From contig CAVZLW010000007.1 of assembly GCA_963776285.1 (NCBI GenBank), forward strand, positions 185,415 to 249,414: 64,000 bases of DNA. Direction: 5' to 3'. Below the pieces are notes generated by a model that was not told the origin of the DNA, made no database searches, and saw only the letters and a list, made by a program, of their open reading frames with translations. This document shows positions 2,386 to 56,973 of the stretch, piece after piece (the stretch's first letter is position 1; each line of letters starts with the position of its first letter). Made by a program: the position numbers and the translations under genes. The DNA is from an uncultured Chloroflexia bacterium. Its GTDB lineage: Bacteria > Chloroflexota > Limnocylindria > Limnocylindrales > CSP1-4.

Positions 2386-3423
2386 ATGACCAACGAGACC
2401 GTCGGCAGTCGTGCCGACCACCAGCACCCCGTCCGGACCGTTCCCCGGTTCGCGCTCCGCATCTTCTGGCTGCTGCACCGCGCGATGGTCCGGCTCAGCG
2501 GCCACCGGTTCGGCCTCAGTCGGCCCGAGGCCGGCGAGCGGTTCGGGATGCTGCGCCTCACCACGGTCGGGCGTCGCTCCGGGGCAACCCGGGTGGCGAT
2601 CGTCGGCTACTACGAGGACGGGGCCAACCTCGTCACCCTGGCGATGAACGGCTGGGGGCGCACGGAGCCGGCGTGGTGGCTGAACCTCCAGGCGAACCCC
2701 GACGCCACGGTTGAGCTGCCCGACGGCCCCCGAGCGGTGCGGGCCCGCGCCGCGTCGGGCGAGGAGCGCGACCGGCTCTGGGCCAGGTTCCGCGACTATC
2801 CCGGCTGGGCCCCCGACATCGATGCCTCCGCGGCGCTGCGGCCCACCCCCACGGCGGTGATCGTCCTCGAGCCGCGTGATGCCCTGCCCGAGACCACCGC
2901 CCCGGCGACGAACGTCCCGGCGGACGTCCCCGCCCCGGCCGTCCAGACAGTGCTTACCGCGGACGCTCACTCGCCTCGCCGGCTGGCGCTCCGCCACCTC
3001 TGGATCGTCCCGGGGCTCGGCATCGCCCTCTTCGCCAACGCGCAGTCCACGACCTACGGCGTCGGCCTGGTGCCGCTCCTGCTGTTCGGGATCGTGCCCC
3101 ACCTCCCAGCCCTCGCGGGGATCGGTCAGCCGCTCGGTCGCGGCCAGCTGGCCCCGCGCGCCGTCCCGCTCTTCAACGCGATGCACCAGCCGGCCCTGCC
3201 GCTGGCGGTGGCAGTGCTTGCCGCCACAGGCGTTCTGTCCCCGTTCTGGCTGGTGGGCGCCCTGGCGTGGCTCAGTCACATCGTCGTGGACTGGGGCTTC
3301 GCCAAAGGAATCCGGACCCGCGACGGATACGTTCGGGGCTCCGCCGGCGCCGGACGCCGAGCGCACCGAGGCGAAACGACCAGCGGACCCTCGGCCCAGG
3401 TCGGCGTGTCGGCTCCAGCATGA
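2386..3423 (+). CDS. Deazaflavin(F420)-dependent nitroreductase (Ddn/DUF385-like) fused to a C-terminal DUF4260-like membrane domain
   Basis: RBS GAGGAGA. The N-terminal ~160 aa match the Ddn/PNPOx-like nitroreductase family (RLSGHRFG, LLRLTTVGRRSGATRV, ANPDATVEL). The C-terminal ~130 aa are hydrophobic and resemble the DUF4260 protein at 34873..35283. The two parts are in one continuous frame. Confidence 0.65.
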   Translation: MTNETVGSRADHQHPVRTVPRFALRIFWLLHRAMVRLSGHRFGLSRPEAGERFGMLRLTTVGRRSGATRVAIVGYYEDGANLVTLAMNGWGRTEPAWWLNLQANPDATVELPDGPRAVRARAASGEERDRLWARFRDYPGWAPDIDASAALRPTPTAVIVLEPRDALPETTAPATNVPADVPAPAVQTVLTADAHSPRRLALRHLWIVPGLGIALFANAQSTTYGVGLVPLLLFGIVPHLPALAGIGQPLGRGQLAPRAVPLFNAMHQPALPLAVAVLAATGVLSPFWLVGALAWLSHIVVDWGFAKGIRTRDGYVRGSAGAGRRAHRGETTSGPSAQVGVSAPA

Positions 3424-3445
3424 AGGAATGCAGTGCCCGGCCCCG

Positions 3446-3790
3446 GGGGCCGGGCACCGTGCGAACCCGCAGGATGACGGTCGCGTCCCACAGTTGCCAG
3501 GCCGAGTCGCCCCGCGATTCACCCCCCAAGCACGGGCTGAGCGTGGGCCCTCATATGGTCGACGCTGTTTCGCAAGCAGCAGCGCCAATCCGCCGCCTTG
3601 TCTGAGCGAAGGGATGGTTGTAGCCACGGGTGTAGCCAGACCGGTGGACGTCCTGCCGTCGCGGTGGACGGTTTGGGGCCTCTCGGGCGGCGTTTCATGC
3701 TCGCCAGGGGCCTCAGTGGACGCCGTCGGATGCCCGCTGTTCGGCTTCGTAAACAGCAGGTCCTCGGTTCAAATCCGAGTGTCGGCTCCA
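3446..3790 (+). ncRNA. ssrA: Candidate tmRNA (ssrA) / tRNA-like element
   Basis: The 3' end is ...GGTCCTCGGTTCAAATCCGAGTGTCGGCTCCA, with T-stem CTCGG/CCGAG, T-loop TTCAAAT and acceptor strand CGGCTCC plus discriminator A. A perfect complementary 5' strand GGGGCCG lies 345 nt upstream at 3446, giving a G3:U70 pair, which is tRNA-Ala/tmRNA identity. No canonical 73-76-nt tRNA can be folded from this 3' end. The only in-frame tag candidate ends ...AVSQAAAPIRRLV-TGA at 3603-3605, which is atypical. Three unpaired nt between T-stem and acceptor, and no smpB nearby. Confidence 0.4.
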
Positions 3791-4053
3791 GCCTTTGCCC
3801 CATGTCCTCTGCATGGCTGGCAACGCCTCGTGTGACCACTGAGTCCGCGACTTTCGCCGCCGGGGTTGCATACAGTGGCGGCGCGAACGGGCACGGCTCC
3901 CACGAACACGCCTGCGGTCAATCCCGCCGCGAGGATCACCGCCGCAGACGACGGCCGAACGACGCCACGCGATGGGGAGTGAGCGACACCGCCACCTGCC
4001 TGGTCTTGGTGACTTCCAGGAGTGCGATGGGTGGTGACCATCGTTTCGAGCGG

Positions 4054-4485
4054 TCAGGCGGCTGCTGCCGCGTCCGGCCGTCCGAACAAACCGAGCTGGA
4101 TCAGCATCCCGAGTTGATCCGGGACGCCCCAGTGCTCGACGATCTTGCCGTCAGCGAAGCGGATGACGTCGATCACCGTGATCTCGAATGACCGGCCGGT
4201 CGCCGGTCGGCCCATGACGTTGCCCGTGTTGACACCCGTCCCGCGACAGCGGATCCAGACCGTGTCGTCGCTCGCGATGAGGTCGACGATCACCAGCTCG
4301 AAGTCGCTGAACCAGGACCGGAGGGTCCGGATCGTCTCCTTGACACCCTCGATCCCCGGCTTCAGTCCGCGCTGATTCTCGACCGAATCCGGTGAGACGA
4401 GCTCATCGCAGACGCCCAGGTTGCCTCCGGTGAACCCTTCGGCGATCAGCCGGCGGGTGGCGGCGATGTTCTCTTGGACCGACAT
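4054..4485 (-). CDS. SnoaL-like / ester cyclase family protein
   Basis: The 143-aa product starts MSVQENIAATRRLIAEGF... with an NTF2-like polyketide-cyclase signature. RBS GGGAGGGGA. Confidence 0.7.
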   Translation of the reverse strand: MSVQENIAATRRLIAEGFTGGNLGVCDELVSPDSVENQRGLKPGIEGVKETIRTLRSWFSDFELVIVDLIASDDTVWIRCRGTGVNTGNVMGRPATGRSFEITVIDVIRFADGKIVEHWGVPDQLGMLIQLGLFGRPDAAAAA

Positions 4486-19077: not shown

Positions 19078-21231
19078 TCAGCCGAGCAGGCCGAGCTCCC
19101 GGCCCCGGGCAACAGCCTCGACCCGGTTCGCGGCCCCGAGCTTGCCCGAGATCGTGTGAAGGTGCGACTTGACGGTGCCCACGGTCACGAAGAGCTCTGC
19201 CGCGACCTGGCTGTTGGACCGCCCGAGGGCGACCAGGCGCAGGACCTCGAGCTCGCGCGCGGTGAGCTCCTCGACGAGAGGGTCGGGACCTTCGCCCTCG
19301 CGGCGACGGGGCTCGCGGCCGGCGTTCGCGAGCAGCGGGCCGATGCGCGCGAGCGTCGCCTGGGCGAGCCGCGCGCTCGGCGCGTCGCCGGCCGCTGTTG
19401 CGAGCTCGAGGGCGCGACGCGCGGCGGCCTCGGCGAGCTGGGGCTGCCCGAGATCGGCCCGGGCGCTGGCCATGACGGCCCAGACCGCTGCGCTGTCGGT
19501 CGCGCCCGACTCCCTCGGGGTCCGCTCGAGCTCCGCCTGGCACAGTCGGGCCGCCCGCTCGGGATCGCCGCGCATGATCGCGATCCTTGCCAGGTCGCCG
19601 ATCGTGCGCCCCACCGCGAGCGCGTTGCCGGCGGCCCGCAGGTCGGGCAGCGCGGCTTCGTAGGCCTCGGCAGCCGCGTCGAGGTCGCCGGCACGGATCA
19701 GCGCCACGCCGAGCAGCGCCGCGGCCGTGCCATGCAGCGTCGCCGCGGCGTCCTCCGGGAGCCCGGCAGGGACGAGGTCGCGCGCGAGGCGCGCCTGCGC
19801 GATCGCGGTGGCGCTGTCCCCTTCGAGCCCGGCGAGCTGCGAGCGGAGGAGAGCGAGCTGGGTGGGAATCGCCGGCCGCATCATCGGACCGCCGTCGTGC
19901 CCGTCGGCGAGCGCGCGTTCGGCGTCGGCGAGCCGCTCGGCGACTCCCTCGGTCTCGCCGGCGAGGAGAAGGCACCAGGCGTACGAGGCGCTGAGCTGGG
20001 CATGGCCGCGGACGACCTCCGGCGGCAGGGCGTCGAGCCACCGCCGGACCGTGCTCAGCTCGCCCGCATTGACGTGCCGTCCCGAGGCGACCGCGACGAT
20101 CCGGCTCGTGCGCTCGAGATCGCCGGACCGCAGCGCGTGGTCGATCGCCTCGTCGTCATCTCCGCGCTCCTCGTGCCAGGCCGACGCTCGCGCGTGCAGC
20201 TCGGCGACCTCGTCGGGACGGAGCGTCCGAAGCCGAGCGCGGAGAATCCCGGCGAAGAGCGCGTGATAGCGGTACCAGCGTCGCTCGTCGTCGAGCGGGG
20301 TGATCAGGAGGTTTGCGCGCTCCAGCCCTTCGAGGCGCGCCTGGCCCCCGGGCTCCCCCGTCACCGCCTCGCACAGCGGACCGCACAGGCGGTCGAGGAT
20401 CGAGGTGCGCAGGAGGAACTCCTGGGAGTCGCGCGGCAACCCGGCCAGGACCTCCTCGACGACGTAGTCGAGGATGTAGCGGTGGCTGGCCCCGAACCGC
20501 CGCACCAGGTCGGCATGATCGGGTCGGCCGCGCAGGGAGACCGCTGCCAGCCGCAGCGCCGCGGCCCACCCCTCGGTTCGGTCGGTGAGCTCGTCGATCT
20601 CCGACGGGGGGAGGTCAACCCCGGACGAGCGGACGAGCGAGGCAGCTTCGGCCGCGGTGAAGCGAAGGTGGTCCGCGCGGACTTCGAGGAGCTCGCCGCG
20701 GGCACGCAGGCGCGCCAGCGGAAGCGGCGGGTCGGCCCGGGTGGCGATCGCGAGACGGGCCCCGGGCGGGAGACGCTCGACGAGCGCCGCGACGAATCCG
20801 TGGATGGCCGCTTCGTCGATCACGTGGTAGTCGTCCAGCACCACGACGGCGCCGCCTCCTGCAGCGGCGAGGCGGTCGAGGACGTGGGCCAGGGCCAGCT
20901 CGGGATCGAAGGACCCGGCGTCGAACGCCCCCGTGTCCGCCCGTTCGCCGGCGAGCTGTGCCGTGGCCGCCGCGAGATAGCGCGCGAACCGGACGATGTC
21001 GTTGTCGCGCGCGTCCAGCGAGACCCACGCGCCCCGGACGTCCGGCTGACCCAGCCAGTCGGCGAGCAGGGTGCTCTTGCCGAACCCGGCGGGCGCCGAG
21101 ACGAGCACGAGTCGAGCGCCGGCGGAGGTGTCGAGCTGCGTCCGCAGCCGCTCGCGGTCGACGTGGCGCGTGCCTCGCGCCTGGACGCCGAGCTTCGTCG
21201 TGATCAGGGCATCTCGCCCTGGCATCTCCAT
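19078..21231 (-). CDS. Large LuxR-family (MalT/LAL-type) regulator: AAA/P-loop NTPase, helical repeats and C-terminal LuxR HTH
   Basis: Walker A LVLVSAPAGFGKSTLL. C-terminal LTARELEVLRLVALGRSNSQVAAELFVTVGTVKSHLHTISGKLG. Confidence 0.85.
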   Translation of the reverse strand: MEMPGRDALITTKLGVQARGTRHVDRERLRTQLDTSAGARLVLVSAPAGFGKSTLLADWLGQPDVRGAWVSLDARDNDIVRFARYLAAATAQLAGERADTGAFDAGSFDPELALAHVLDRLAAAGGGAVVVLDDYHVIDEAAIHGFVAALVERLPPGARLAIATRADPPLPLARLRARGELLEVRADHLRFTAAEAASLVRSSGVDLPPSEIDELTDRTEGWAAALRLAAVSLRGRPDHADLVRRFGASHRYILDYVVEEVLAGLPRDSQEFLLRTSILDRLCGPLCEAVTGEPGGQARLEGLERANLLITPLDDERRWYRYHALFAGILRARLRTLRPDEVAELHARASAWHEERGDDDEAIDHALRSGDLERTSRIVAVASGRHVNAGELSTVRRWLDALPPEVVRGHAQLSASYAWCLLLAGETEGVAERLADAERALADGHDGGPMMRPAIPTQLALLRSQLAGLEGDSATAIAQARLARDLVPAGLPEDAAATLHGTAAALLGVALIRAGDLDAAAEAYEAALPDLRAAGNALAVGRTIGDLARIAIMRGDPERAARLCQAELERTPRESGATDSAAVWAVMASARADLGQPQLAEAAARRALELATAAGDAPSARLAQATLARIGPLLANAGREPRRREGEGPDPLVEELTARELEVLRLVALGRSNSQVAAELFVTVGTVKSHLHTISGKLGAANRVEAVARGRELGLLG

Positions 21232-36954: not shown

Positions 36955-39855
36955 TCACCGCCAGTTCGGGTCGAGGTTCCTGCCACCCCGGGTGGGCATC
37001 AGGTCGCGCGCACCCGTCCCGTCGGCGTTGACCACCCACAGATGGTACCCGTCGCCCGTGCTCGCCCGGTAGAAGGCGATCTGCCTGCCGTCGGGCGACC
37101 AGACCGGATTGCCGTCCTGGACCGCGTTGTGGGTCAGCCGTCTCGTGACCCTCTTCGTCGCCACGTCGAGCAGGTACACGTCGTTGCTGGCGTCGTCGAT
37201 GCCGTCACCCCGGACGAAGGCGATCGTTCGCTGGTCCGGGGACCAGGCGGGGTTTCGCTCGGAGGCGGGGCTGGTCGTCAGCCGCTCGTACCCGCTGCCA
37301 TCCGGCCGGACGATCGCGACGTCGTAGCCGGAGGTGCCTTTCGGATCGAGGTTCGCGGTGAGGGCCAGCATCGTCCCGTCCGGCGACCAGGCCGGCGACC
37401 GGAGCCGGTATCCGTGGACGACCTCGTGCGCGCCGGATCCATCGCTCCGGATCACCCAGATGGCCGAATCTTTGCTCGGCGGGACGGTTCGGACGAAGGC
37501 GATCCAGCCATCCTTCGACCAGGCCGGGAAGTAGTCGTCGGCCCGTCCACTCGTCAGCGGCCGCTCGGAGCCGTCGGCTTCGCGAATGTAGATGTCGCGC
37601 GTCCCGTTCACCTTGCGGGTGAAGGCGATCTGCCGGTAATCAGGCGACCAGGTCGGGAAGGTGTCGTCGACGCCGTTGTGCGTGAGCTGCGTGGTCTTCC
37701 CCGAAGCCGGGTCGAGAAGATACAGCTCGTTGTCGGTCTGGTTGGACCCGGGCTCCAGGTTGCTGTAGAAGAGGATGCCGGGCGAGACGGGCGCAGCCGG
37801 CGCGGGGGCGGCCGAACCGGGAGCCGCGGACCCGGGGGCTGTCGAACCGGGGGCGACTGATCGGGGACTGCTGCCGCTCGACGCGGCGGTCGTCGGCGAG
37901 TAGTCGCTCCGGGCCTCCCTGCCGGACGTGCGGCCGACCGCCGCCACCTCGACGCGCGTCCGATCCCCGATCTCGAGCGCCGCCCGGATCGAGCCATCGG
38001 CGGCGGCAACCACCGTCCCGGCCGGGTTCGCGTCGAGGGAGAGGTCGACATCCTCACCGCGGGTGAAGCCCGTCCCGGTCACCAGGACGGCCCTGCCCGG
38101 CAAGGTGCTCGCCGCGGAGACGGCGATCGAGGCGCCCGTGTCCGTCGGAAGGACGGCACGCCCGATGATGAGCAGGACGACGACGGCCGCGAGGCCCAGG
38201 ACGATGCGCCGCCATCGGAATCGCGCAGGCAGGGGTGACGCCTGCCCTGGGAGCGGGCGGGCCGCCGGCGCCGGTTCGGGCGCCCGCATGGTCAGTGGGC
38301 CGATCGCCGGCGCCGGTTCGGGCGCCCGAGTGGTCTGAATTGGCTGTCGATCCTCGTCGCCATCCGCCCCGGCTGCGCCCAGCCGATCCAACCCGGCGGC
38401 CGCGGTGGTCCCCGCGAGGGCAGGCCCGGGGAGCGCGTCCTCGGCCTCCTTCGGCCCGGGGAGCGCCGCCTCGGCAGAGCCGCCCGCGGGTGGCAGGGCC
38501 GGGATGGGGACGCCCTCCTCGGTCATGCTGGCGGCCGCGCCCGCGGCGACCGCAGCCACGGGAAGGACACCTTCGGGCGGCGAGGTCCCGGGGAGGGCGC
38601 CGGGCTGCGCGTCGGTCACCTGGAGCTGGCCGTCGGGCTGGCTGGTGTCGGCCGGGACGGTCGCGGCCGCAGCGGCGGCGGCTCCCGCCGGGACCGGGTC
38701 TGGGCTCGACGCCACCTTGGGCGGCAGGTCCTGCGGGTCGCGCCGCGGGATCGCGGCGGCGTTCGCCACGTCGAAGAGCTGGCCGTCGGCCACCCGCATG
38801 AACAGGACGGGCGTTCCCCACTCGACGTCGTTCTGGTCGGCGTAGATGGCAAGGCGCGCCTCCGCAACCGCCGAATTGACGGGCCGACCCTCGGCCAGCA
38901 TCGAGTAGAACTCCCCCGCGAAGAGGACCGCCGCACGGTCCGTGATCTCGAACTGCATCCCGATCACCGCGGGGATCTCGCGCTGGACCAGGCTCGTGGC
39001 GACCCCGGAGAACGGGTCGTCCACCGAGTTGCGGGCGCCCTCGCACGAGTTGAGCAGGACGAGTCGCAGCGACACCTTGTCGTGGAGGATGGTCGCGATC
39101 TGGTCCCCGCTCACCGGCCGGCCCCGACCGGCCTCGTCCTCGAAGAGGAGTGCTCCCTCGCCGCTCGCGTCGTCGAATCCGCCGTGGCCGATGTAGTGGA
39201 TGATGTGGTACTCGTCGGACCTGAGCGTGCGGGCCAGGGCCAGCAGGCTGGCCTCCTCGAGCCAGTCGACGGAGACGGCCTTCGCATCGATCACGGGGCG
39301 GAGCGCCTCCTCCAGCCGGGTCCGCTCCAGTCCCGCGTCGAGCTGCCCGGCGTCGGAAGGTGCGCTGACGATGCCAAGGATCCGGAGCGGGAGCTCCACC
39401 TGGAGCGGCCGGCGGGGCTTCGGGACGTCGAGGTAGCGGACAACAGGGGTCCATGTCGAGATCGACAGGAAGTCGGGCTCGTCGAAGAGGTACTCCCATG
39501 GGATCCCACCCAGCTCGGGCACCTCGCTCAGCGACAGGGTGACCCGCAGCCCCTGCCCCGCGGTCCGGGCCTCGCCGAGGCATGTGCGATAGAGCTCGTC
39601 GACCTTGCCCGAGATGAGGGCCGAGAACAGCCGGCCGCCGAATGCTCGCGCAAGCCCCATCTCGGGCGACTCGATGCGACGGACGCCGCGGCGAGTTCGT
39701 CCGACCTTCAGGACGAAGTTCTCGAGCTCCGTCGCGGTGAACGGCGCGGCGAACGTGCCGGGCGCCTCACCCCCGAGCCCGCTGGCCGCGACTCGGTAGG
39801 ACCCCGGGGTCGCTCCCCGCTCGATGCGCAGGCGAAACTCCGCGTAGGTCGTCAT
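36955..39855 (-). CDS. CHAT-domain (caspase-like peptidase) protein with Pro/Ala-rich linker, single TM helix and C-terminal TolB-like (PD40) beta-propeller
   Basis: The N-terminal region (YAEFRLRIERGATPGSYRVAASGLGGEAPGTF) is typical of standalone CHAT proteins. The CHAT His/Cys dyad is HIIHYIGHGGFD...LVLLNSCEGAR. A TM helix (RFRWRRIVLGLAAVVVLLIIG) is preceded by a basic patch, which places CHAT in the cytoplasm. There are five or more PD40 repeats (FPTWSPDYRQIAF, FPAWSKDGWIAF, SPAWSPDGTMLAL, NPAWSPDQRTIAF, NPVWSPDGRQIAF). Confidence 0.8.
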   Translation of the reverse strand: MTTYAEFRLRIERGATPGSYRVAASGLGGEAPGTFAAPFTATELENFVLKVGRTRRGVRRIESPEMGLARAFGGRLFSALISGKVDELYRTCLGEARTAGQGLRVTLSLSEVPELGGIPWEYLFDEPDFLSISTWTPVVRYLDVPKPRRPLQVELPLRILGIVSAPSDAGQLDAGLERTRLEEALRPVIDAKAVSVDWLEEASLLALARTLRSDEYHIIHYIGHGGFDDASGEGALLFEDEAGRGRPVSGDQIATILHDKVSLRLVLLNSCEGARNSVDDPFSGVATSLVQREIPAVIGMQFEITDRAAVLFAGEFYSMLAEGRPVNSAVAEARLAIYADQNDVEWGTPVLFMRVADGQLFDVANAAAIPRRDPQDLPPKVASSPDPVPAGAAAAAAATVPADTSQPDGQLQVTDAQPGALPGTSPPEGVLPVAAVAAGAAASMTEEGVPIPALPPAGGSAEAALPGPKEAEDALPGPALAGTTAAAGLDRLGAAGADGDEDRQPIQTTRAPEPAPAIGPLTMRAPEPAPAARPLPGQASPLPARFRWRRIVLGLAAVVVLLIIGRAVLPTDTGASIAVSAASTLPGRAVLVTGTGFTRGEDVDLSLDANPAGTVVAAADGSIRAALEIGDRTRVEVAAVGRTSGREARSDYSPTTAASSGSSPRSVAPGSTAPGSAAPGSAAPAPAAPVSPGILFYSNLEPGSNQTDNELYLLDPASGKTTQLTHNGVDDTFPTWSPDYRQIAFTRKVNGTRDIYIREADGSERPLTSGRADDYFPAWSKDGWIAFVRTVPPSKDSAIWVIRSDGSGAHEVVHGYRLRSPAWSPDGTMLALTANLDPKGTSGYDVAIVRPDGSGYERLTTSPASERNPAWSPDQRTIAFVRGDGIDDASNDVYLLDVATKRVTRRLTHNAVQDGNPVWSPDGRQIAFYRASTGDGYHLWVVNADGTGARDLMPTRGGRNLDPNWR

Positions 39856-43982: not shown

Positions 43983-44249
43983 TCCCCGCCACGAGCAGCC
44001 GTAGGCCGGAGCGACTGCCACGCAGAAGTGAACGGCGACGGCCGACCGGCCGCCGTGCTCGACCCGAGACGGGTGGGATGGCGAGCGGGCTTCAACGGGC
44101 CGTCTCGCGGGTAGCCCATCGTCTTCTTGACCGCACCGCGATGCGCGCCTTAGCGTTGTCGTGCGCAGAGGTCGACGGGGTCGATGCGCCGCCGGCAGGG
44201 CGGCGAGGATGCGCGACGGATGTCGCGCGGTCGAGGGATGGGGGCAGCG

Positions 44250-47168
44250 ATGCGCATCGTCGTCACGCACGGACGCGACCAGGCATTCCAGATTCCCGAG
44301 ACGATGGGTCGTGCGTGGGCGGATGCCCTCCGCCACGGTCTCCGCTCGGCCGGCTACGCGCGGCCGGACGACCTCGACGTGCGGTTCGCGTTCTACGGCG
44401 ACCTCTGGAGGCCCGACCGCCGCGAGCCGGCCGACGACGAGCGCGGCGGTGGCGTCGAGCCTGACGCCCTGAGGGCGCCGCCGACCGCCATCCAGGCGGC
44501 GATCGGCGCCGAGCTCCTCGGACCGCGCCCGGACGCCGAGCGGATCGAGTGGCAGCGCCTGGGACAGGTGGTCCGCGCGCTCGACGACGTGTTCGGTGTC
44601 GGGGAAGTGCTGCTCACGCAGTTCATGGGTGACCTGGACGAGTACTTCCGGGACGCGGACCTGCGGGCGACGGTGCTCGAGCGGGTGGCCCAGGTCTGCC
44701 AGGCGGACGCTGAGCCGGTGCTCCTCCTCGGCCACAGCATGGGAAGCATCGTGGCCTATGACCTCCTCGCGACGCGCGGGGCGCGACCGCTCGGGGTCGC
44801 CGGACTCGTGACGTTCGGCTCCCCGCTCGGCATGAAGAGCCTTCATCGGCACGTGGATGACCTTCACCCCGGAACGCCGTTCCCGGCAGGTCTCGCCGCC
44901 TGGACCAATGTCTTCAATGCGGAGGACTTCGCGACCGTCGTCCCTTCCCTGGCGCCCCTGTTCCCGGGCGTCGGCACGCGGCATGTGAAGGACGTGGGGG
45001 CCGAGGGTCGGGAGCCGTCCTTGCTCTCGCCCGGTGAGGGCCACGACCCGATCGTCTACCTCAGCTCGATGGCACTGGGCCGCGCAGTCCGCGAGATGCT
45101 CGAGCCGGTTCTTGCCGCGCCCGTCGTAGCGCCGCCGCCGCCGGCCGTACCCGCCCGATCGATCCCGCGGACGGGCGGTCCCGTTGCGACCCCGTCGGCG
45201 GGCGCGCCGGCACCGCAGCCGACCAGGGCGATGCCGCCGCAGGCCGCGCGCCCGGTCCAGGCCGAGCCGCCGCGGCCGACCAGGGCGATGCCGCCGCCGC
45301 CGGCCACTCGTCCGGTCCAGGCCGAGCCGCCGCCGCCGAACTTGCATGGGACGCCTCCGCGGCAGTTCGCGCGTCCGGTCCAGGCCGAGCCGCCGCGGCC
45401 GACCAGGGCAATGCCGCCGCTGCAGGTCGAACCGCCGATAGAGGCTGTCGCCGCGCCGCCGCCCGTGGCCGCGGGCGGAGACCGCGGGGGCCTGGCCGCC
45501 TCGCCCGGCGGCTCCGGCGGCGCCCCGGCACCCGTCCTGGTGCGCGGTAGCGACGAAGCGCTGGCCGTCCCGGGGACCGCCACCGCCCCCGCGACGAAGA
45601 CCGTCGAGCGGGTCGCGTCGGCAGACTTCCCGCCCGTGGTCCTGCCCGGCAGCACCCACGACCTGCTCTTCGCCATCGGCGCCGCGGCCGCCTTCGCTCG
45701 CGCGGCCGACGTGGCGCTCGTCGTGCCGGCAGAGCAGCGGACGCTGGACCTTCGCGTCGGCGTCTACGCCCAGGACTTCGACATCCGGGTCGGCGACGAG
45801 GATCTCACCTGGCAGGCCATCACGATCAACCTGGATGACGCGTCGAGGAGCGTCTCCCGGACGTTCGCGCTGACGGCGCACGATGTCACCGAGAAGCGCG
45901 AGACGACGATCTACCTGACCGTCTACCGCGACAGCCTGCCCGTCGCCCAGGTGGCCCTCGTGACCACGATCGACCCGGCCTTCCAGCCGCTCCGGGCGTC
46001 GATCAGCCTGAACCTGGACGGGGCCGAGGATCCCGACTTCGTGCTGGTGATCATGGACCGCGGCAACCCGAAGGGCGAGGGGCCCTTCGAGATGTTCGTG
46101 AGCCAGAAGGGCGAGTTCGTCAACCGGCCGCTGGGCACGATGAACGTGACGATCAACGCCTGGAAGTACGCCCAGGACCGCCTCGCGGGCTTCAAGAGCG
46201 TGCGCGACGGAGCGACGGACAGGATGCGGTTCAACCGGGCAGAGAGCTTGGGACTCGCGCTCTGGCGGGACCTGCCGCCCGACTTCCAGCGCTTCTACTG
46301 GGACGAGCTCCACGGGCACGACTGGTCCATCGCCATCTACTCGCAGGAGCCGTACATCCCGTGGGAGCTGGTCCGCCCCCAGAAGGAGAGCGGGGAGCAG
46401 GCCGACTTCCTCGGCATCTCGTTCAGCATGGCCCGCTGGAAGCAGGCCGTCCGCTTCCCGGATCCGCTCGTGGTCTCGGGGTTCTCCGTCATCGCACCCG
46501 TGTACACCGAAGTGTCGGGCGCTCCGCCGCTGCCCGGCGCGCAGGAGGAGGCCGACGCGCTGGTCGCGACGTTCGGGGCCACGCGGATCGCCGGCGAGCT
46601 CGCCGCCGTGACCGAGCTCCTGGAGTCGACGCGGGGCGTGCAGCTCATCCATTTCGCGGGGCACGGCGATTTCGACCCCGAAGCCGACACCGACACGGTG
46701 ATCAAGCTCGCCGACCAGTCGCTGGTCCCGGAGGACATCTACCGGGCGAACCTCGGCCGGGCCTCGCGGCCCCTCGTGTTCCTCAACGCCTGCGAAGTTG
46801 GCGAGGAGGGCTGGTCGCTCACGCGGATCGGCGGCTGGGCCGAGGCGTTCACCGACGTCGGATTCTCCGGCTTCGTCGGGCCGTACTGGGCGGTCAACGA
46901 CACGGTCGCGCGCAAGGCGGCGCTCCTCTTCTACGGCGCGCTGCGCGACGGGGCGTCCGTCGGCGAGGCCCTCCAGGCGATCCGTCGCCAGTTCTACGAC
47001 GAGCCGGACGAGAAGTACCGGGGCCACCCGAGCTGGCTCGCCTACACGCTCCACTGCCAGCCGAACGTGCACATCACGATCCCGGCCGCCGGGGTCGCGA
47101 GCAATCCGCCAGCGCCAGGCACCTCCGGGACAGGCGATCCCCTCGCCGCGCCCGGCGCGAAGCCCTGA
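44250..47168 (+). CDS. Multidomain protein: N-terminal alpha/beta-hydrolase (GHSMG serine esterase/lipase-like), Pro-rich tandem-repeat linker, central unknown domain, C-terminal CHAT (caspase-like) domain
   Basis: MRIVVTHG... start with GGGGG RBS. Nucleophile elbow is VLLLGHSMGSIVAYDLL. About 4 tandem ~20-aa repeats (PTRAMPPQAARPVQAEPPR). The CHAT His/Cys dyad is LIHFAGHGDFD...LVFLNACEVGEEG. Confidence 0.75.
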   Translation: MRIVVTHGRDQAFQIPETMGRAWADALRHGLRSAGYARPDDLDVRFAFYGDLWRPDRREPADDERGGGVEPDALRAPPTAIQAAIGAELLGPRPDAERIEWQRLGQVVRALDDVFGVGEVLLTQFMGDLDEYFRDADLRATVLERVAQVCQADAEPVLLLGHSMGSIVAYDLLATRGARPLGVAGLVTFGSPLGMKSLHRHVDDLHPGTPFPAGLAAWTNVFNAEDFATVVPSLAPLFPGVGTRHVKDVGAEGREPSLLSPGEGHDPIVYLSSMALGRAVREMLEPVLAAPVVAPPPPAVPARSIPRTGGPVATPSAGAPAPQPTRAMPPQAARPVQAEPPRPTRAMPPPPATRPVQAEPPPPNLHGTPPRQFARPVQAEPPRPTRAMPPLQVEPPIEAVAAPPPVAAGGDRGGLAASPGGSGGAPAPVLVRGSDEALAVPGTATAPATKTVERVASADFPPVVLPGSTHDLLFAIGAAAAFARAADVALVVPAEQRTLDLRVGVYAQDFDIRVGDEDLTWQAITINLDDASRSVSRTFALTAHDVTEKRETTIYLTVYRDSLPVAQVALVTTIDPAFQPLRASISLNLDGAEDPDFVLVIMDRGNPKGEGPFEMFVSQKGEFVNRPLGTMNVTINAWKYAQDRLAGFKSVRDGATDRMRFNRAESLGLALWRDLPPDFQRFYWDELHGHDWSIAIYSQEPYIPWELVRPQKESGEQADFLGISFSMARWKQAVRFPDPLVVSGFSVIAPVYTEVSGAPPLPGAQEEADALVATFGATRIAGELAAVTELLESTRGVQLIHFAGHGDFDPEADTDTVIKLADQSLVPEDIYRANLGRASRPLVFLNACEVGEEGWSLTRIGGWAEAFTDVGFSGFVGPYWAVNDTVARKAALLFYGALRDGASVGEALQAIRRQFYDEPDEKYRGHPSWLAYTLHCQPNVHITIPAAGVASNPPAPGTSGTGDPLAAPGAKP
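45216..45440 (+). repeat. Tandem ~60-bp coding repeats (about 3.5 copies) encoding the Pro-rich linker of the hydrolase-CHAT protein
   Basis: Repeated ccgaccagggcgatgccgccg...cgtccggtccaggccgagccgccgcg units are visible directly. They translate to PTRAMPP(Q/P)xxRPVQAEPPR. Confidence 0.7.
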
Positions 47169-47181
47169 AGGAGACCGACCG

Positions 47182-48012
47182 ATGACCGACACCGACCCCG
47201 GCGCGAGGGTCTTCCGCCGGCTCAGCGCGACGGGCGAGGGACATGACTTCGACGACCCGACGCTGACCGAGATGGCCACCTCTTTGGCTGCCGACGGCGA
47301 CCGGGAGCTGACGGGGGACCGCGGCGGTGACACGAGCGCGGCGCCGTTCGACCTCGGCATCCCCGCGCCGCGGGCGGTCGACCTCCTGGCCCTCTGGAAG
47401 CTGACCGGCAAGCAGCCCGACCCGATGGTTCTCGCGACGCTCGGGCCGCGGACGCCGATCCTCCTGTCGCACGCCGTCACGGCCTTCCCGGCACCCGGCA
47501 AGCCGCCGCGCGTGTGGGGGATCAACTACGCGAGCTCTTTGTTCGACGTGGACGCGACGACGGTGGACCTGGCCCCGACGAGCGAGCTGCTCGACGTCCT
47601 CAAGGTGGATGCGACGGCCGGGCTCAGCATCGGGCTCGGCGGCGAGCTGAAGGTGCCACCCGTCGCGATCGCCGCGATCCAGCAGGTCCCGGGCGTGACG
47701 CTCAATGCCGCGACGGTCGGCGGCAGCATCAATGAGACGGCGACGCTCCAGATCGACTTCACCATGTCGGTCCCGAAGGTGATTGCGGGCCCGGACGCGT
47801 CAGGCGGGGCCCGCTGGCAGCTCTACGCGCAGGACCGCGCCCTCAACGGCTACCAGGCGCTGCTCCAGACGGTGCTCCTCCCGCCGGGCGTCCGCGCCAT
47901 CCGCGTCGACATCGTCGCGTCGGTGGCTGCCGCGGGCTGGTTCGGCCCGAAGGAATGGACCTACGCGACCGAGTCGTTCCAGGTCTCGCTGGATGGGCTT
48001 CCGAACCCCTGA
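47182..48012 (+). CDS. Hypothetical protein, tightly linked downstream partner of the hydrolase-CHAT gene
   Basis: ATG 14 nt after the CHAT gene stop, with a GAAGGAGA RBS. 276 aa with balanced composition (W/F/Y/K present). No family recognised. Confidence 0.6.
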   Translation: MTDTDPGARVFRRLSATGEGHDFDDPTLTEMATSLAADGDRELTGDRGGDTSAAPFDLGIPAPRAVDLLALWKLTGKQPDPMVLATLGPRTPILLSHAVTAFPAPGKPPRVWGINYASSLFDVDATTVDLAPTSELLDVLKVDATAGLSIGLGGELKVPPVAIAAIQQVPGVTLNAATVGGSINETATLQIDFTMSVPKVIAGPDASGGARWQLYAQDRALNGYQALLQTVLLPPGVRAIRVDIVASVAAAGWFGPKEWTYATESFQVSLDGLPNP

Positions 48013-54437: not shown

Positions 54438-55871
54438 TCAGGGAGCCGTCGCCTCGCCGAGCCAGGCCGATCCGGCGTCCCCGATCCAGAGGAGCCCGAT
54501 CGGCAGGGCCAGGAGACGCCAGGACTGGTCGGGTGGCGTGACCGGGGAGATCGCCAGCGGCTGCCAGGTCAGCCCGTCGAACGAGGTCCACGCCGCGGGT
54601 CGCGTGCCACCCCGGTAGCCGACGAACCGCTCGCCGTCGGCCACGAGCTCGCCGTCCGGAACAAGCCCCGTGCCCTCTCCCTGGCCCTCCCAGACTCCGA
54701 GCGGTGGATAGCCGGGGAGCGGCTTCCACGCCCGGCCGGTCGTCGTCGACCACCACAGCGCCTGGCCCGGAGTGGCATTCGTGTCGCCCAGCCCCACGAG
54801 TCCGTTCGACCCAACCGCGAGGCTCCTGGCATAGCCCGGCCCCGACGCCGGCATCGTGACCGGTGTCCAGGTCCGCCCATCCCCGCTCCACAACGCCCCG
54901 GCGCGGTCTTCCCCCTGCAGCCCGACGGCGACGAACCCGCCCGCGACGGGGGCGATGTCGGAGCAGACGAACCCCGCGGGGAACGCGTCGAGGGGCAGCG
55001 TCTCCCACGCGACGCCGTCGCCCGAGCGCGCGAGGCGGCACGGGCCCTGCGCCTGCGTTGCCAGGAGGCCGGGCGCGACCGGGGGCGCGACGGGAACGGC
55101 GCGCGCGGCCACGATCGTCGCCGGGCGGCGCACCTCGACGACGGCCGCCGGGCGATCCCAGGTCCATGCGACCAGCCCCGGCTGCCCGGCGACCATGCGC
55201 GGCCGGTCGAGGCCTGCGTCGCCCCCGTACACCGCGGGCATCGGGAGGTCCGGTCCGGGGTGGGTGGTCCAGGTCTGGCCGTCGGACGATGCGACGACCT
55301 GCAGGGGTGGAGTGAGCGCCAGGCAGTCGAGCCCGAGGGTCCGGATGTCGCCGGGGCCACAGGTGCTGGCGCCGCCCGTGAGCGTGAGCGCGGCCACGCC
55401 GCCCGCGGTGGGCACGACATCGAGGATCACGGTGGAGGCGCCGAGGACGCCGGGCGCCAGGGCGGTCCAGGTCGCGCCGTCGGGCGAGACCCAGGCGGGC
55501 GTTCGCGACGACGCGCCGCTGACGATGGGGATCCCGACGGCGATGAAGCCGCCCTTCCAGCGGACCACGGATCGCACGCCGGCGAGCGGGTCGCCATCCA
55601 CCAGGGCTCGCCACCGGATGCCGGTCCAGGCCGTCGTCGCGGGCGGCGGGACCGGCGTCGTGAAGCCCGGCAGGGGGCTCGGCGCCGGTGCCGCCGGCGA
55701 CGGCGTGGCACCCGTCGAGGCGGGCGACGGGCTCGCGGCCGTCGCCGGCGACGGCGACGGCGACGCCGACGGACCTGACGACGCCGCGGCGCAGCCTCCC
55801 AGCACGAGGATCGCGGCCGCCGCCAGCGCCGTCGTGGCGACGAGGTGGGACCTCTCCGTTCGCGGGTGCAT
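54438..55871 (-). CDS. Lipoprotein with BNR/Asp-box repeats (sialidase-like beta-propeller)
   Basis: Signal peptide with lipobox (ALAAAAILVLGGC). Five or more S-x-D-G-x-T-W repeats (SPDGATWTAL, SSDGQTWTT, SGDGVAWETL, SGDGRTWTPV, SFDGLTWQPL). Confidence 0.75.
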   Translation of the reverse strand: MHPRTERSHLVATTALAAAAILVLGGCAAASSGPSASPSPSPATAASPSPASTGATPSPAAPAPSPLPGFTTPVPPPATTAWTGIRWRALVDGDPLAGVRSVVRWKGGFIAVGIPIVSGASSRTPAWVSPDGATWTALAPGVLGASTVILDVVPTAGGVAALTLTGGASTCGPGDIRTLGLDCLALTPPLQVVASSDGQTWTTHPGPDLPMPAVYGGDAGLDRPRMVAGQPGLVAWTWDRPAAVVEVRRPATIVAARAVPVAPPVAPGLLATQAQGPCRLARSGDGVAWETLPLDAFPAGFVCSDIAPVAGGFVAVGLQGEDRAGALWSGDGRTWTPVTMPASGPGYARSLAVGSNGLVGLGDTNATPGQALWWSTTTGRAWKPLPGYPPLGVWEGQGEGTGLVPDGELVADGERFVGYRGGTRPAAWTSFDGLTWQPLAISPVTPPDQSWRLLALPIGLLWIGDAGSAWLGEATAP

Positions 55872-56124
55872 CGCGGGCTCCTTCCGGGTGGTGCGTCTTC
55901 GAGGCGAGTCCGGATCACCATCCGACCGTATTCCTGTGGACGGCCGTCCACAAGTCCGGAAGATCATGGAACGGCAACCCGGGCCCTATGACGGGCCGGC
56001 GATCGGTCTGCAGCAGCGCGGCCACGCACGGCGCTCCCCCTGGCGCGGTAGGCTCGTGTCGCGAGGTCGCGCCGGGCGGCCGGACCGGCCGCTCCCTCGA
56101 GGGACCAGCACCTGGAGGCAGACG

Positions 56125-56973
56125 ATGGGTGACACGGCGGAGATCGGCGTCTTCGGCGGCTCGGGCTTCTACTCGCTCCTCGACGACGTCCGCGAGGTCA
56201 AGGTCGACACGCCGTACGGGGCGCCGTCGGACAGCGTCTTCCTGGCAAACGTGGGCGGGCGGAAGGTCGCCTTCCTGCCGCGCCATGGCCGGCGGCACAC
56301 GATCCCGCCGCACCGGATCAACTACCGGGCCAATATCTGGGCGATGCGGGCGCTCGGCGTGAAGGCCGTCATCAGCCCGTGCGCGGCCGGGTCCCTTCAG
56401 CGGAAGGTCGCGCCCGGCGACTTCGTCGTCTGCGACCAGTTCGTGGACCGCACCCGGGGCCGCGACGACACGTTCTTCGACGGGCCGATCGTGAGCCACC
56501 TCAGCGCGGCCGAGATCTATGACCCGGTTCTTCGTTCGATCGCCATCGATGTCATCCGCGAGCACGGCATCCCGCTCCACGAGCACGGCACCGTGGTCGT
56601 GATCCAGGGCCCGCGCTTCTCGACCAAGGCCGAGTCGACATGGTTCTCCGACGCCGGGTGGGAGGTCATCAACATGACCCAGTACCCGGAGGCCTACCTC
56701 TGTCGCGAGCTCGGGATGGCGGTCGTCAACATCAGCCTGATCACCGACTACGACGCCGGCGTCCTGGAAGGAACCGAGGCGGTCGACGCCCTCAGCGTGC
56801 TGGACGTCTTCCAGCAGAACGCGAGCCGGATCCAGAAGGTCGTCCTGGAGATGATCCGCCGGTTCCCGGAGGACCTGGACGCCCTGGGGGCTCGCGAGGC
56901 GCTCGCCGTCACCCGCGGAGACGGCCACGTGATCTCGCCGCTCGACGTGCGGCTGTTCGAGACCGGCCTGTAG
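56125..56973 (+). CDS. mtnP: S-methyl-5'-thioadenosine phosphorylase
   Basis: RBS GGAGG. IGVFGGSGFYSL...FLPRHGRRHTIPPHRINYRANIWAMRALGV is the canonical MTAP/PNP-family pattern. Confidence 0.85.
   Translation: MGDTAEIGVFGGSGFYSLLDDVREVKVDTPYGAPSDSVFLANVGGRKVAFLPRHGRRHTIPPHRINYRANIWAMRALGVKAVISPCAAGSLQRKVAPGDFVVCDQFVDRTRGRDDTFFDGPIVSHLSAAEIYDPVLRSIAIDVIREHGIPLHEHGTVVVIQGPRFSTKAESTWFSDAGWEVINMTQYPEAYLCRELGMAVVNISLITDYDAGVLEGTEAVDALSVLDVFQQNASRIQKVVLEMIRRFPEDLDALGAREALAVTRGDGHVISPLDVRLFETGL

Follow-up and report, generated by a model that had tools for sequence, protein, structure and literature searches.

Within a 64,000-nucleotide (nt) stretch of the genome of an uncultured Chloroflexia bacterium (Limnocylindrales; contig CAVZLW010000007.1, positions 185,415 to 249,414 of the forward strand), hereafter the window, we found a mobile two-gene cassette composed of a CHAT protease fused to a lipase-like enzyme (gene A) and a small partner protein (gene B). 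The identity of the domains, the linkage that the two genes keep as their genomic surroundings change, the location and conservation of Arg-based motifs in both products, and the way in which these motifs co-vary with the class of protease and with the catalytic Ser of the hydrolase, lead us to propose that the cassette is a protease-licensed two-effector cell-death module serving in conflict or defense. Taken from end to end, this reading of sequences and models has, in our view, an even chance of being right. The cassette is laid out as follows.

44250..47168, + strand: gene A, a hydrolase/Pro-rich linker/β-sandwich/CHAT fusion of 972 amino acids (aa), supported by its open reading frame (ORF), a G+C content at third codon positions (GC3) of 0.91, 30 relatives and an AlphaFold2 (AF2) model.
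47169..47181, + strand: intergenic spacer of 13 nt with an AGGAG ribosome-binding site, read from the sequence.
47182..48012, + strand: gene B, encoding a 276-aa partner of an unnamed family, a predicted protease-licensed pore-forming effector, supported by a GC3 of 0.93 and 51 close relatives.

Since the window has a G+C content of 72% and long spurious ORFs are plentiful in it, real genes were told from spurious ones by the G+C content of each codon position. By this measure genes A and B are clearly coding, with values of 0.74/0.52/0.91 and 0.69/0.52/0.93 at the three positions, respectively, in agreement with the original prediction, which had been made from the letters of the window alone and had placed two genes at these coordinates. 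Gene A lies inside an ORF spanning 44184..47168, but the beginning of that ORF is not the start of the gene, which is the ATG at 44250, because every homologue begins as the window protein does, at MRIVVTHG (27/27 aligned homologues). The TGA stop codon of gene A ends at 47168, AGGAG comes next, and the ATG of gene B is at 47182. Gene B was therefore rightly credited with a ribosome-binding site of its own, although the spacer, previously given as 14 nt, measures 13 nt.

In relatives, the two genes are either overlapping or no more than ~15 nt apart, and gene B comes directly after gene A both in the window and in three other, independent places (loci L001, L002 and L004; L003 and L007 are the same place as L002, and L005 is on the same contig as L004). 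The genes flanking the cassette are unrelated between these places, and relatives with 85% identity already differ in genomic context. The idea of an effector with an activating protease and a dedicated partner, for which the original prediction had proposed a survey of homologues for conserved neighborhood, is strengthened by this survey, since the genes co-occur as a unit in unrelated contexts. At one further locus (L006, 5649..6158), the hydrolase is reduced to its first ~120 residues, upstream of an intact partner gene; either the fusion has been truncated there or the metagenome-assembled genome (MAG) is misassembled.

The regions and motifs of the gene A product are listed below, arrows marking the bond that would be cut at each candidate site.

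44250..45116, + strand: N-terminal lipase-like α/β-hydrolase, aa 1-289, a predicted zymogen (AF2 fold, Foldseek, invariant triad).
44433..44453, + strand: candidate cleavage site 1, DDER65↓GGG, aa 62-68, in an acidic disordered insert (low predicted local distance difference test score (pLDDT), conservation, alignment with the standalone homologue P0238).
44538..44546, + strand: candidate cleavage site 2, E97-R98↓I99 (low pLDDT, nearly invariant E97, alignment with P0238).
44736..44738, 44925..44927 and 45042..45044, + strand: catalytic triad Ser163, Asp226 and His265, respectively (alignments).
45117..45581, + strand: disordered Pro/Ala-rich linker, aa 290-444 (Tandem Repeats Finder (TRF), composition, pLDDT ~30-36).
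45480..45488, + strand: third motif, GGDR412↓GG, in the linker (sequence).
45594..46142, + strand: central all-β region, an Ig/MG-like sandwich, aa 449-631 (AF2 strands, Foldseek).
46158..47084, + strand: CHAT caspase-fold protease, aa 637-945 (PF12770, Foldseek, catalytic dyad).
46662..46664 and 46791..46793, + strand: CHAT catalytic His805 and Cys848, respectively (alignment).

Judged by its profile match and modeled fold, the C terminus of gene A is a bona fide CHAT protease. It matches PF12770 over aa 756-929 (E=6e-20; 72.3 bits vs a cut-off of 24), and the catalytic His805 and Cys848, which lie in the motifs HFAGHG (aa 801-806) and NACE (aa 846-849), are invariant in 28/28 aligned sequences (30 relatives of gene A, full-length or partial, were found). 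When this part of the AF2 model (built from 28 relatives, mean pLDDT 73.6) was compared with the PDB by Foldseek, the first match was Csx29/TPR-CHAT of Craspase (8.8e-9), followed by the CHAT-bearing anti-sigma factor DdvA, separase and SAVED-CHAT.

As for the N terminus, fold and active-site residues together identify it as a lipase-like α/β-hydrolase. In Pfam, all of its matches are under the gathering score, the best being Hydrolase_4 (21 bits vs 27), and those at the nucleophile elbow are Hydrolase_4, PGAP1 and LCAT. In the AF2 model, aa 1-289 form a high-confidence α/β fold, for which Foldseek returned from the PDB the A. fulgidus lipase 2zyr (2e-4) and the DDHD phospholipase domain 9jyx (5e-4). 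The nucleophile motif GHSMG occupies aa 161-165, and Ser163, Asp226 and His265 are invariant among Ser-bearing fusion relatives and standalone homologues. Both ends of the protein are therefore what had been predicted from the sequence, a GHSMG hydrolase (by fold and triad, with Pfam matches below threshold only) and a CHAT domain with a His/Cys dyad, and so is the tandem-repeat Pro-rich linker between them. This linker has a Pro content of 28% (aa 290-448) and is encoded in part by a tandem repeat at 45213..45461 (TRF; period 60, 3.6 copies, and also period 123, 1.9 copies). Its length ranges among relatives from 39 to 159 aa, and it contains [DE]RG in most of those that bear the catalytic Ser. 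The central region, which has no Pfam match, resembles in Foldseek the MG domains of complement C3 and YcnI, carries an invariant SADFPP motif, and is possibly a sensor or a substrate platform.

The hydrolase is likely a zymogen comparable to LcHydrolase and joined in cis to its own protease. In Lysobacter capsici, LcCaspase cuts LcHydrolase, a zymogen, after R73 and R117 (R↓G at both) into fragments of 8.1/4.7/19.8 kDa and releases a toxic enzyme, R↓G being conserved across 161 LcHydrolase homologues (Evans et al., November 2025 preprint, PMC12642450). In our model, confidence drops within the N-domain at two loops only (aa 55-69 and aa 94-98), which are exactly those of candidate sites 1 and 2. 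Moreover, site 1, in the form [DE]R[GS], is found in 18/18 of the fusion relatives that bear Ser163 vs 0/10 of those that do not (28 aligned), and this joint retention or loss of site 1 and Ser163 is, to us, good evidence for a zymogen. In the Ser-less relatives (P0060, P0063 and P0065-P0072; 10/28), Ser163 is replaced by D, A, G or R, and 6/10 of them have a very short linker of 39-62 aa. The losses of Ser163 and site 1 were at least three separate events (in the P0063 clade, in the P0067/68/70 clade and in P0060), P0061, the sister of the P0067/68/70 clade, having kept both. Decay of the hydrolase half appears to have occurred repeatedly, with CHAT and partner left intact.

Standalone homologues point the same way. 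A search with a profile of the N-domain by itself returned 96 proteins, nearly all standalone and mostly ~265-325 aa in length, of which the closest (47-48% identity) are each encoded directly after the gene of a caspase-fold protease. P0245 (locus L040) overlaps the stop of a 679-aa Peptidase_C14 gene, with a further C14 gene and a CHAT gene downstream, and P0238 (L041) begins 4 nt after the gene of a 502-aa CHAT protein. The two sites of P0238, R72↓G73 and AER117↓G118W, align with R65↓G66 and DAER98↓IEW of the window protein and sit in the same two inserts. In P0238 the candidate residues are R72/R117 vs R73/R117 in LcHydrolase, and the predicted fragments are 8.2/4.5/20.2 vs 8.1/4.7/19.8 kDa; those predicted for the window N-domain are 7.6/3.3/20.4 kDa. 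Because the closest standalone relatives follow caspase or CHAT genes, and because the sites of P0238 match those of LcHydrolase and have equivalents in the window, we assign the N-domain on sequence grounds to a caspase/CHAT-adjacent hydrolase family and regard the hydrolase half as a fusion of a known caspase/hydrolase pair. More distant standalone hydrolases lack both loop inserts, and six of them lie in housekeeping-like contexts with no protease (e.g., beside gpsA or a D-Ala-D-Ala carboxypeptidase gene). We therefore rejected the notion that all relatives of the N-domain are protease-linked; only the closest, insert-bearing clade adjoins proteases. A standalone 271-aa paralogue of the hydrolase, also without both inserts, is encoded at L001 (16306..17121, − strand), only ~5 kb from the fusion-partner cassette, and at L017 (6001..6816); its conserved neighborhood includes genes for an astacin-like peptidase and for an ATP-grasp (MvdD-like) protein.

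The window cassette shares with LcCaspase/LcHydrolase the genetic coupling of a caspase-fold protease to a lipase-like hydrolase of ~290 aa, and two Arg-based candidate sites in loops ahead of the catalytic core. In contrast to that pair, a 155-aa Pro-rich linker joins the hydrolase to the N terminus of the protease, which is a CHAT protease and has a β-sandwich in addition, the middle fragment is shorter (33 aa), site 2 reads R↓I, a second putative effector gene is present and no sensor domain is evident. In a computational study, the caspase-superfamily domain of vWA-MoxR (VMAP) ternary systems was likewise noted to be always accompanied by a neighboring α/β-hydrolase gene (Kaur et al. 2020, PMC7159879). 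The earlier statement that the cassette is not a characterized system thus falls for the caspase/hydrolase pair and its logic, already known from the computational description in PMC7159879 and the biochemical one in PMC12642450, and stands for what is new here, most of all the 276-aa partner and also the merging of hydrolase and protease into a single chain.

The partner, for which the original prediction gave neither a family nor a function, is built as follows.

47182..47322, + strand: putative N-terminal propeptide, aa 1-47, ending at the candidate site DR47↓GG (R47 codon 47320..47322; AF2, conservation, RG register).
47341..48009, + strand: core, aa 54-276, a predicted β-sandwich of leukocidin/α-hemolysin type.
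47602..47772, + strand: long amphipathic Gly/Ser/Thr-rich β-hairpin, aa 141-158 and 172-197, a candidate membrane-inserting stem (alternation, β-moment).

The AF2 model of the partner (45 sequences; pLDDT 68; predicted template modeling score (pTM) 0.64) begins with a strand (aa 11-14) and a helix (aa 26-37) of pLDDT ~88, followed by a flexible low-confidence loop (aa 41-46) and a β-sandwich core in which aa 131-200 are poorly modeled. R12 and D25 of the N-terminal part are conserved. The C terminus belongs to the core sandwich, and both the flexible linker and the RG dipeptide are N-terminal (aa 41-53). This RG stands at a fixed register, 6-9 residues ahead of the start of the core (APFDL...), in 43/45 relatives, a raw count across kin sequences scored within 16 aa of the core start, vs ~3% expected from background density, while the neighboring residues vary. 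The tetrapeptide [DE]RGG is common to the R47 site of the partner, to site 1 of the hydrolase (aa 64-67) and to the linker of the fusion (aa 411-414). When partner relatives are sorted by the protein encoded next to them, the linker motif changes with it.

Hydrolase-CHAT fusion neighbor: linker motif [DE]ERGG.
TCAD7-DUF7363-CHAT and CHAT-STAND neighbors: linker motif ATRGL (ATRAL in L009).
Trypsin-like peptidase neighbor: linker motif VTRGD.
CHAT neighbors of 1001-1051 aa: linker motif LFxxMG.
vWA-linked group: neither an RG nor an MG motif, and a longer N terminus ending in PPDPxxC.

Since it co-varies with the class of the protease, the linker motif behaves as a substrate cut site would, and the partner is, on this pattern and on the model, probably a substrate of the CHAT protease that is cut near R47. 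LFxxMG takes the place of RG in L019-L024 (40-99% identity to P0106), next to a CHAT protein of 1001-1051 aa, which suggests a CHAT lineage with Met at P1. In L027-L033 (e.g., L031, 1286..2374, and L032, 5896..6978), the core is preceded by a longer, unrelated N terminus of ~100 aa whose last residues, immediately ahead of the core, are PPDPxxC; the vWA-linked loci L031 and L032 resemble MoxR-vWA ternary systems and show no protease next to the partner gene.

The N terminus of the partner (MTDTDPGARVFRRLSATGEG...) lacks a hydrophobic signal segment, so that its site of action would be within the cell that makes it. The best structural matches of its core, obtained by two methods, are toxins of the α-hemolysin/leukocidin group (NetF, Hla, LukGH and CytK), a likeness that is modest and near that of generic β-sandwiches. 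Residues 141-158 and 172-197 show a strict alternation of hydrophobic and polar side chains, which is kept even in relatives of 20-40% identity, and the β-amphipathic moment of the partner peaks at this hairpin (aa 141-197), which looks like the stem of a β-barrel pore former. The partner resembles α-hemolysin/leukocidin toxins in size (~270-300 aa), in its predicted β-sandwich cap and in its candidate mid-chain stem, a Gly/Ser/Thr-rich amphipathic hairpin. Unlike them, it has no signal peptide, bears at its N terminus a putative propeptide that includes a candidate protease site, and is encoded with a cytoplasmic protease; no sequence similarity to the group was detected. On these features, we rate the chance that the partner is a pore former at slightly short of even. 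Alternatively, the partner may be a cleaved regulator or substrate (a securin-like inhibitor, adaptor or decoy of CHAT, or a signaling protein with a fragment that acts downstream, like Csx30 and CalpT), which would leave the hydrolase as the sole toxin. Such a role accords with the modest fold likeness and with the lack of a sequence link to any toxin family, and protease adjacency and the RG linker show a protease-substrate relation only, not the action of the product. However, the partner occurs with many hydrolase-free proteases (L009, L010, L013 and L021) and persists where the hydrolase nucleophile is lost, and it would therefore be the sole candidate effector in those systems. Moreover, it is not obvious what purpose the long conserved amphipathic hairpin would serve in an inhibitor, and the partner displays no DNA-binding or sigma-like feature. 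This alternative strikes us as unlikely.

The partner has 51 close relatives (43-100% identity), and its profile found 173 clusters at E≤1e-3 among 1.84 billion representatives, full-length members being ~245-350 aa long. Membership of a named family was rejected: NCBIfam returned nothing for the partner itself, neither Pfam (E≤0.01) nor PADLOC returned a match for 58 diverse members of the family, and no PDB sequence matched the profile even at E≤10. The original prediction was right in this respect. In GTDB species representatives, 11/11 matches are Chloroflexia or Limnocylindrales MAGs. A phage origin was likewise rejected, the partner being without relatives in IMG/VR viral contigs.

The neighbors of the partner are varied. 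Its relatives lie beside TCAD7-DUF7363-CHAT in L009 and L012, a 473-aa CHAT in L010, a 1501-aa CHAT-STAND NTPase in L013 (the CHAT genes of L011 and L013-L015 are split or fragmentary in ORF scans) and a trypsin-like peptidase in L008. In a group of 33-55% identity, relatives are found beside 1001-1051-aa proteins ending in CHAT (L021 and L025), after a vWA(CoxE) protein (L031 and L032, with a MoxR-like AAA gene upstream in L032), beside Cas6 (L029 and L036) and beside an ABC-type AAA_21 ATPase (L035). Because of this range of protease and conflict neighbors, and because a partner gene is missing from L040 and L041, where standalone hydrolases accompany proteases, we conclude that the partner is an independent module associated with proteases and conflict systems, and that the window joins two such modules, hydrolase and partner, around one protease. 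Directly 3′ of the partner gene, loci with TCAD7/DUF7363-CHAT have a conserved gene of ~275-295 aa (L011, 7800..8627; L013, 7800..8624; L014, 7695..8582), whose product has hydrophobic, Trp-rich segments and no Pfam match. That it could be a paralogue of the partner was rejected (hhalign probability 0.1%).

A second CHAT protein is encoded in the window, at some distance from the cassette.

36955..39855, − strand: 966-aa CHAT/transmembrane (TM)/PD40 protein, possibly a linked third component (Pfam CHAT 9e-29, PD40 5e-31).

Its layout comprises an N-terminal cytoplasmic CHAT domain, a Pro/Ala-rich linker, a hydrophobic TM-like segment (~aa 570-595), and an extracellular part with an Ig-like domain and a PD40/TolB-type β-propeller, and it may be an envelope-sensing initiator protease. 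Three unrelated genes separate it from the cassette in the window. In L002 and L004, orthologues (64% identity over the CHAT half) are encoded no more than a few kb from the module, and in L011 and L014 relatives of 37% identity are near it. That the pairing recurs suggests proteases arranged in two tiers, between which we infer a functional link. In L002, which belongs to a Limnocylindrales MAG, the second CHAT gene is directly followed, upstream of the cassette, by a gene for a phage-sheath-like protein (2718..4256; Phage_sheath_1/1C), which may belong to a contractile injection system.

The distribution and surroundings of the cassette bear on the possibility that it serves regulated proteolysis in normal physiology, that is, envelope or lipid remodeling, differentiation, or programmed death in filamentous Chloroflexia in the manner of HetF. 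All genome matches are from Chloroflexia or Limnocylindrales MAGs, the neighbors in the window are transporters, an oxidase and a regulator with no defense genes among them, the nearby CHAT-TM-PD40 protein is weakly like HetF (NCBIfam NF045509, 4.7e-17, far under the cut-off), distant relatives of the hydrolase lie beside gpsA and a D-Ala-D-Ala carboxypeptidase gene, and neither a PADLOC match nor a relative in viral contigs was found. Yet the context of the cassette shifts even between relatives of 85% identity, relatives of the partner sit beside STAND NTPase, vWA with MoxR-like AAA, Cas6 and ABC-type AAA_21 genes, all of which are typical of conflict systems, and the parental hydrolase/caspase pair kills cells once cleaved (PMC12642450). 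Such a physiological function accordingly seems to us rather improbable.

We therefore favor a protease-licensed cell-death module, for which we envision the following chain of events. Once activated, the CHAT protease (His805/Cys848) would cut after Arg in acidic [DE]R↓G motifs. It would process its own hydrolase at R65↓G66 and probably also at R98, and may also cut the linker at R412, which would convert the hydrolase zymogen into an active esterase or (phospho)lipase, as for the separate LcCaspase/LcHydrolase. The same protease would remove the 47-residue propeptide of the partner at R47↓G48, the freed hemolysin-like β-sandwich would oligomerize, and its hairpin would insert into the cytoplasmic membrane from the inside. 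Cleavage at these sites, the toxicity of the products, pore formation, the trigger and the role in defense are all steps that we infer. In its fullest form the proposal would make the partner a new family of intracellular α-hemolysin-like pore formers, kept latent by a propeptide and licensed by an adjacent protease with which the cut motif co-evolves. In the window it would be combined with a cis-fused lipase zymogen, giving one protease and two membrane-attacking effectors, possibly downstream of the TM CHAT-PD40 initiator in an envelope-sensing two-tier cascade. We put this version forward tentatively and hold it to be less likely right than wrong. Another account, in which the [DE]RG motifs are incidental to low-complexity acidic/Gly linkers and a constitutively active hydrolase is merely tethered to the protease, draws on the biased composition and fast evolution of the segments concerned and on a second window site that is not R↓G, but is very improbable in view of the fixed register of RG to the partner core amid varying residues, the tracking of the catalytic Ser by site 1 (18/18 vs 0/10) and of the protease class by the partner linker motif, and the match in position to the mapped cut sites of a characterized family (PMC12642450; P0238).

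Several observations weigh against the module that we propose. In the window it has no NTPase and, except for the central β-sandwich, no recognizable sensor, it has no PADLOC match, and it lies in housekeeping-like surroundings (a Na/H exchanger, an ArsR-AHSA1 regulator, a BBE oxidase, a hydrolase and similar genes) and not in a defense island. The N-domain is likened to LcHydrolase through context and site geometry. Site 2 is less secure than site 1, because its P1′ residue in the window is Ile, making it R↓I and not R↓G, and because ER is also found at this position in some protease-free relatives. The nucleophile is missing from 10/28 relatives, and the hydrolase is therefore dispensable in some lineages. 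As for the partner, its putative stem is the low-confidence part of the model, it has no sequence similarity to pore-forming toxin families in Pfam or PDB sequences, and the motif counts, of site 1 as well as of RG, are raw counts over related sequences.

How the cassette compares with other protease-effector systems can be judged from their architectures. Like EACC1 and bacterial gasdermin, the partner is non-enzymatic, small in size and encoded next to a caspase-like, CHAT or trypsin protease, and it has a terminal peptide, a cleavable linker and a β-rich core, autoinhibition being predicted in its case. In gasdermin the inhibitory peptide is C-terminal, whereas the putative inhibitory peptide of the partner is N-terminal. 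No gasdermin match was obtained in PADLOC or Pfam, and a gasdermin identity was rejected for want of either a profile or a fold match. In EACC1, a caspase-like protease removes an N-terminal autoinhibitory fragment, and the C-terminal fragment permeabilizes liposomes (PMC12642450); the partner, at 276 aa vs ~115 aa, differs from it in size. The effector families named in the 2025 survey, which covered ten protease-effector families (PMC12642450), do not include the partner, and it matches none of the gasdermin and Pepco/EACC1-sized families surveyed. Nor was a hemolysin-like protease-associated family found by full-text searches of the literature, by term searches in PMC7159879 and PMC8195603, or in PMC12642450, subscription journals being outside their scope.

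With Csx29 (TPR-CHAT) and SAVED-CHAT, the C terminus of gene A has in common the fold and the His/Cys dyad. Those proteases cut a dedicated partner encoded nearby, and the same arrangement is predicted for genes A and B. Unlike in those systems, there are no TPR, SAVED, cas genes or CRISPR array near the window module, the N-terminal and central domains differ, and the predicted P1 residue is Arg. Neither Cas7-11/gRAMP nor MoxR AAA nor vWA is encoded near the window module, and only distant relatives of the partner adjoin vWA and MoxR-like AAA genes. The comparison with Craspase and ternary systems made in the original prediction consequently holds as an analogy and not as a kinship of gene content, no cas, MoxR or vWA gene being near.

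Protease-gated death effectors are an emerging dominant logic of bacterial immunity, mirroring the caspase-gasdermin axis of animals. If it is a hemolysin-type pore former that serves self-killing, the partner would be the eleventh protease-effector family, and the RG, TRGL and MG motifs would provide natural protease/cut-site pairs for studies of CHAT specificity. If the partner is a pore former, it would be a new member, of a different fold, among protease-licensed pore formers, and a self-killing one of the hemolysin type would link the secreted β-barrel toxins of pathogens to intracellular immune executioners. The cis-fused hydrolase-CHAT protein is a handy single-polypeptide model of zymogen activation, for which lineages missing both the catalytic Ser and the cut site are a built-in evolutionary control.

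Two other genes of the window deserve mention. The first (54856..56973, + strand) encodes a 705-aa protein with a C-terminal PNP_UDP_1 domain (2e-44, aa 429-668) and an N-terminal part of ~430 aa that has no Pfam match; phosphorylase domains of the PNP_UDP_1 type are effectors in some conflict systems. The second (19078..21231, − strand) encodes a 717-aa AAA_16-TPR-LuxR(GerE) protein, which looks like a large ATP-binding transcription regulator of the LuxR type (STAND-like).

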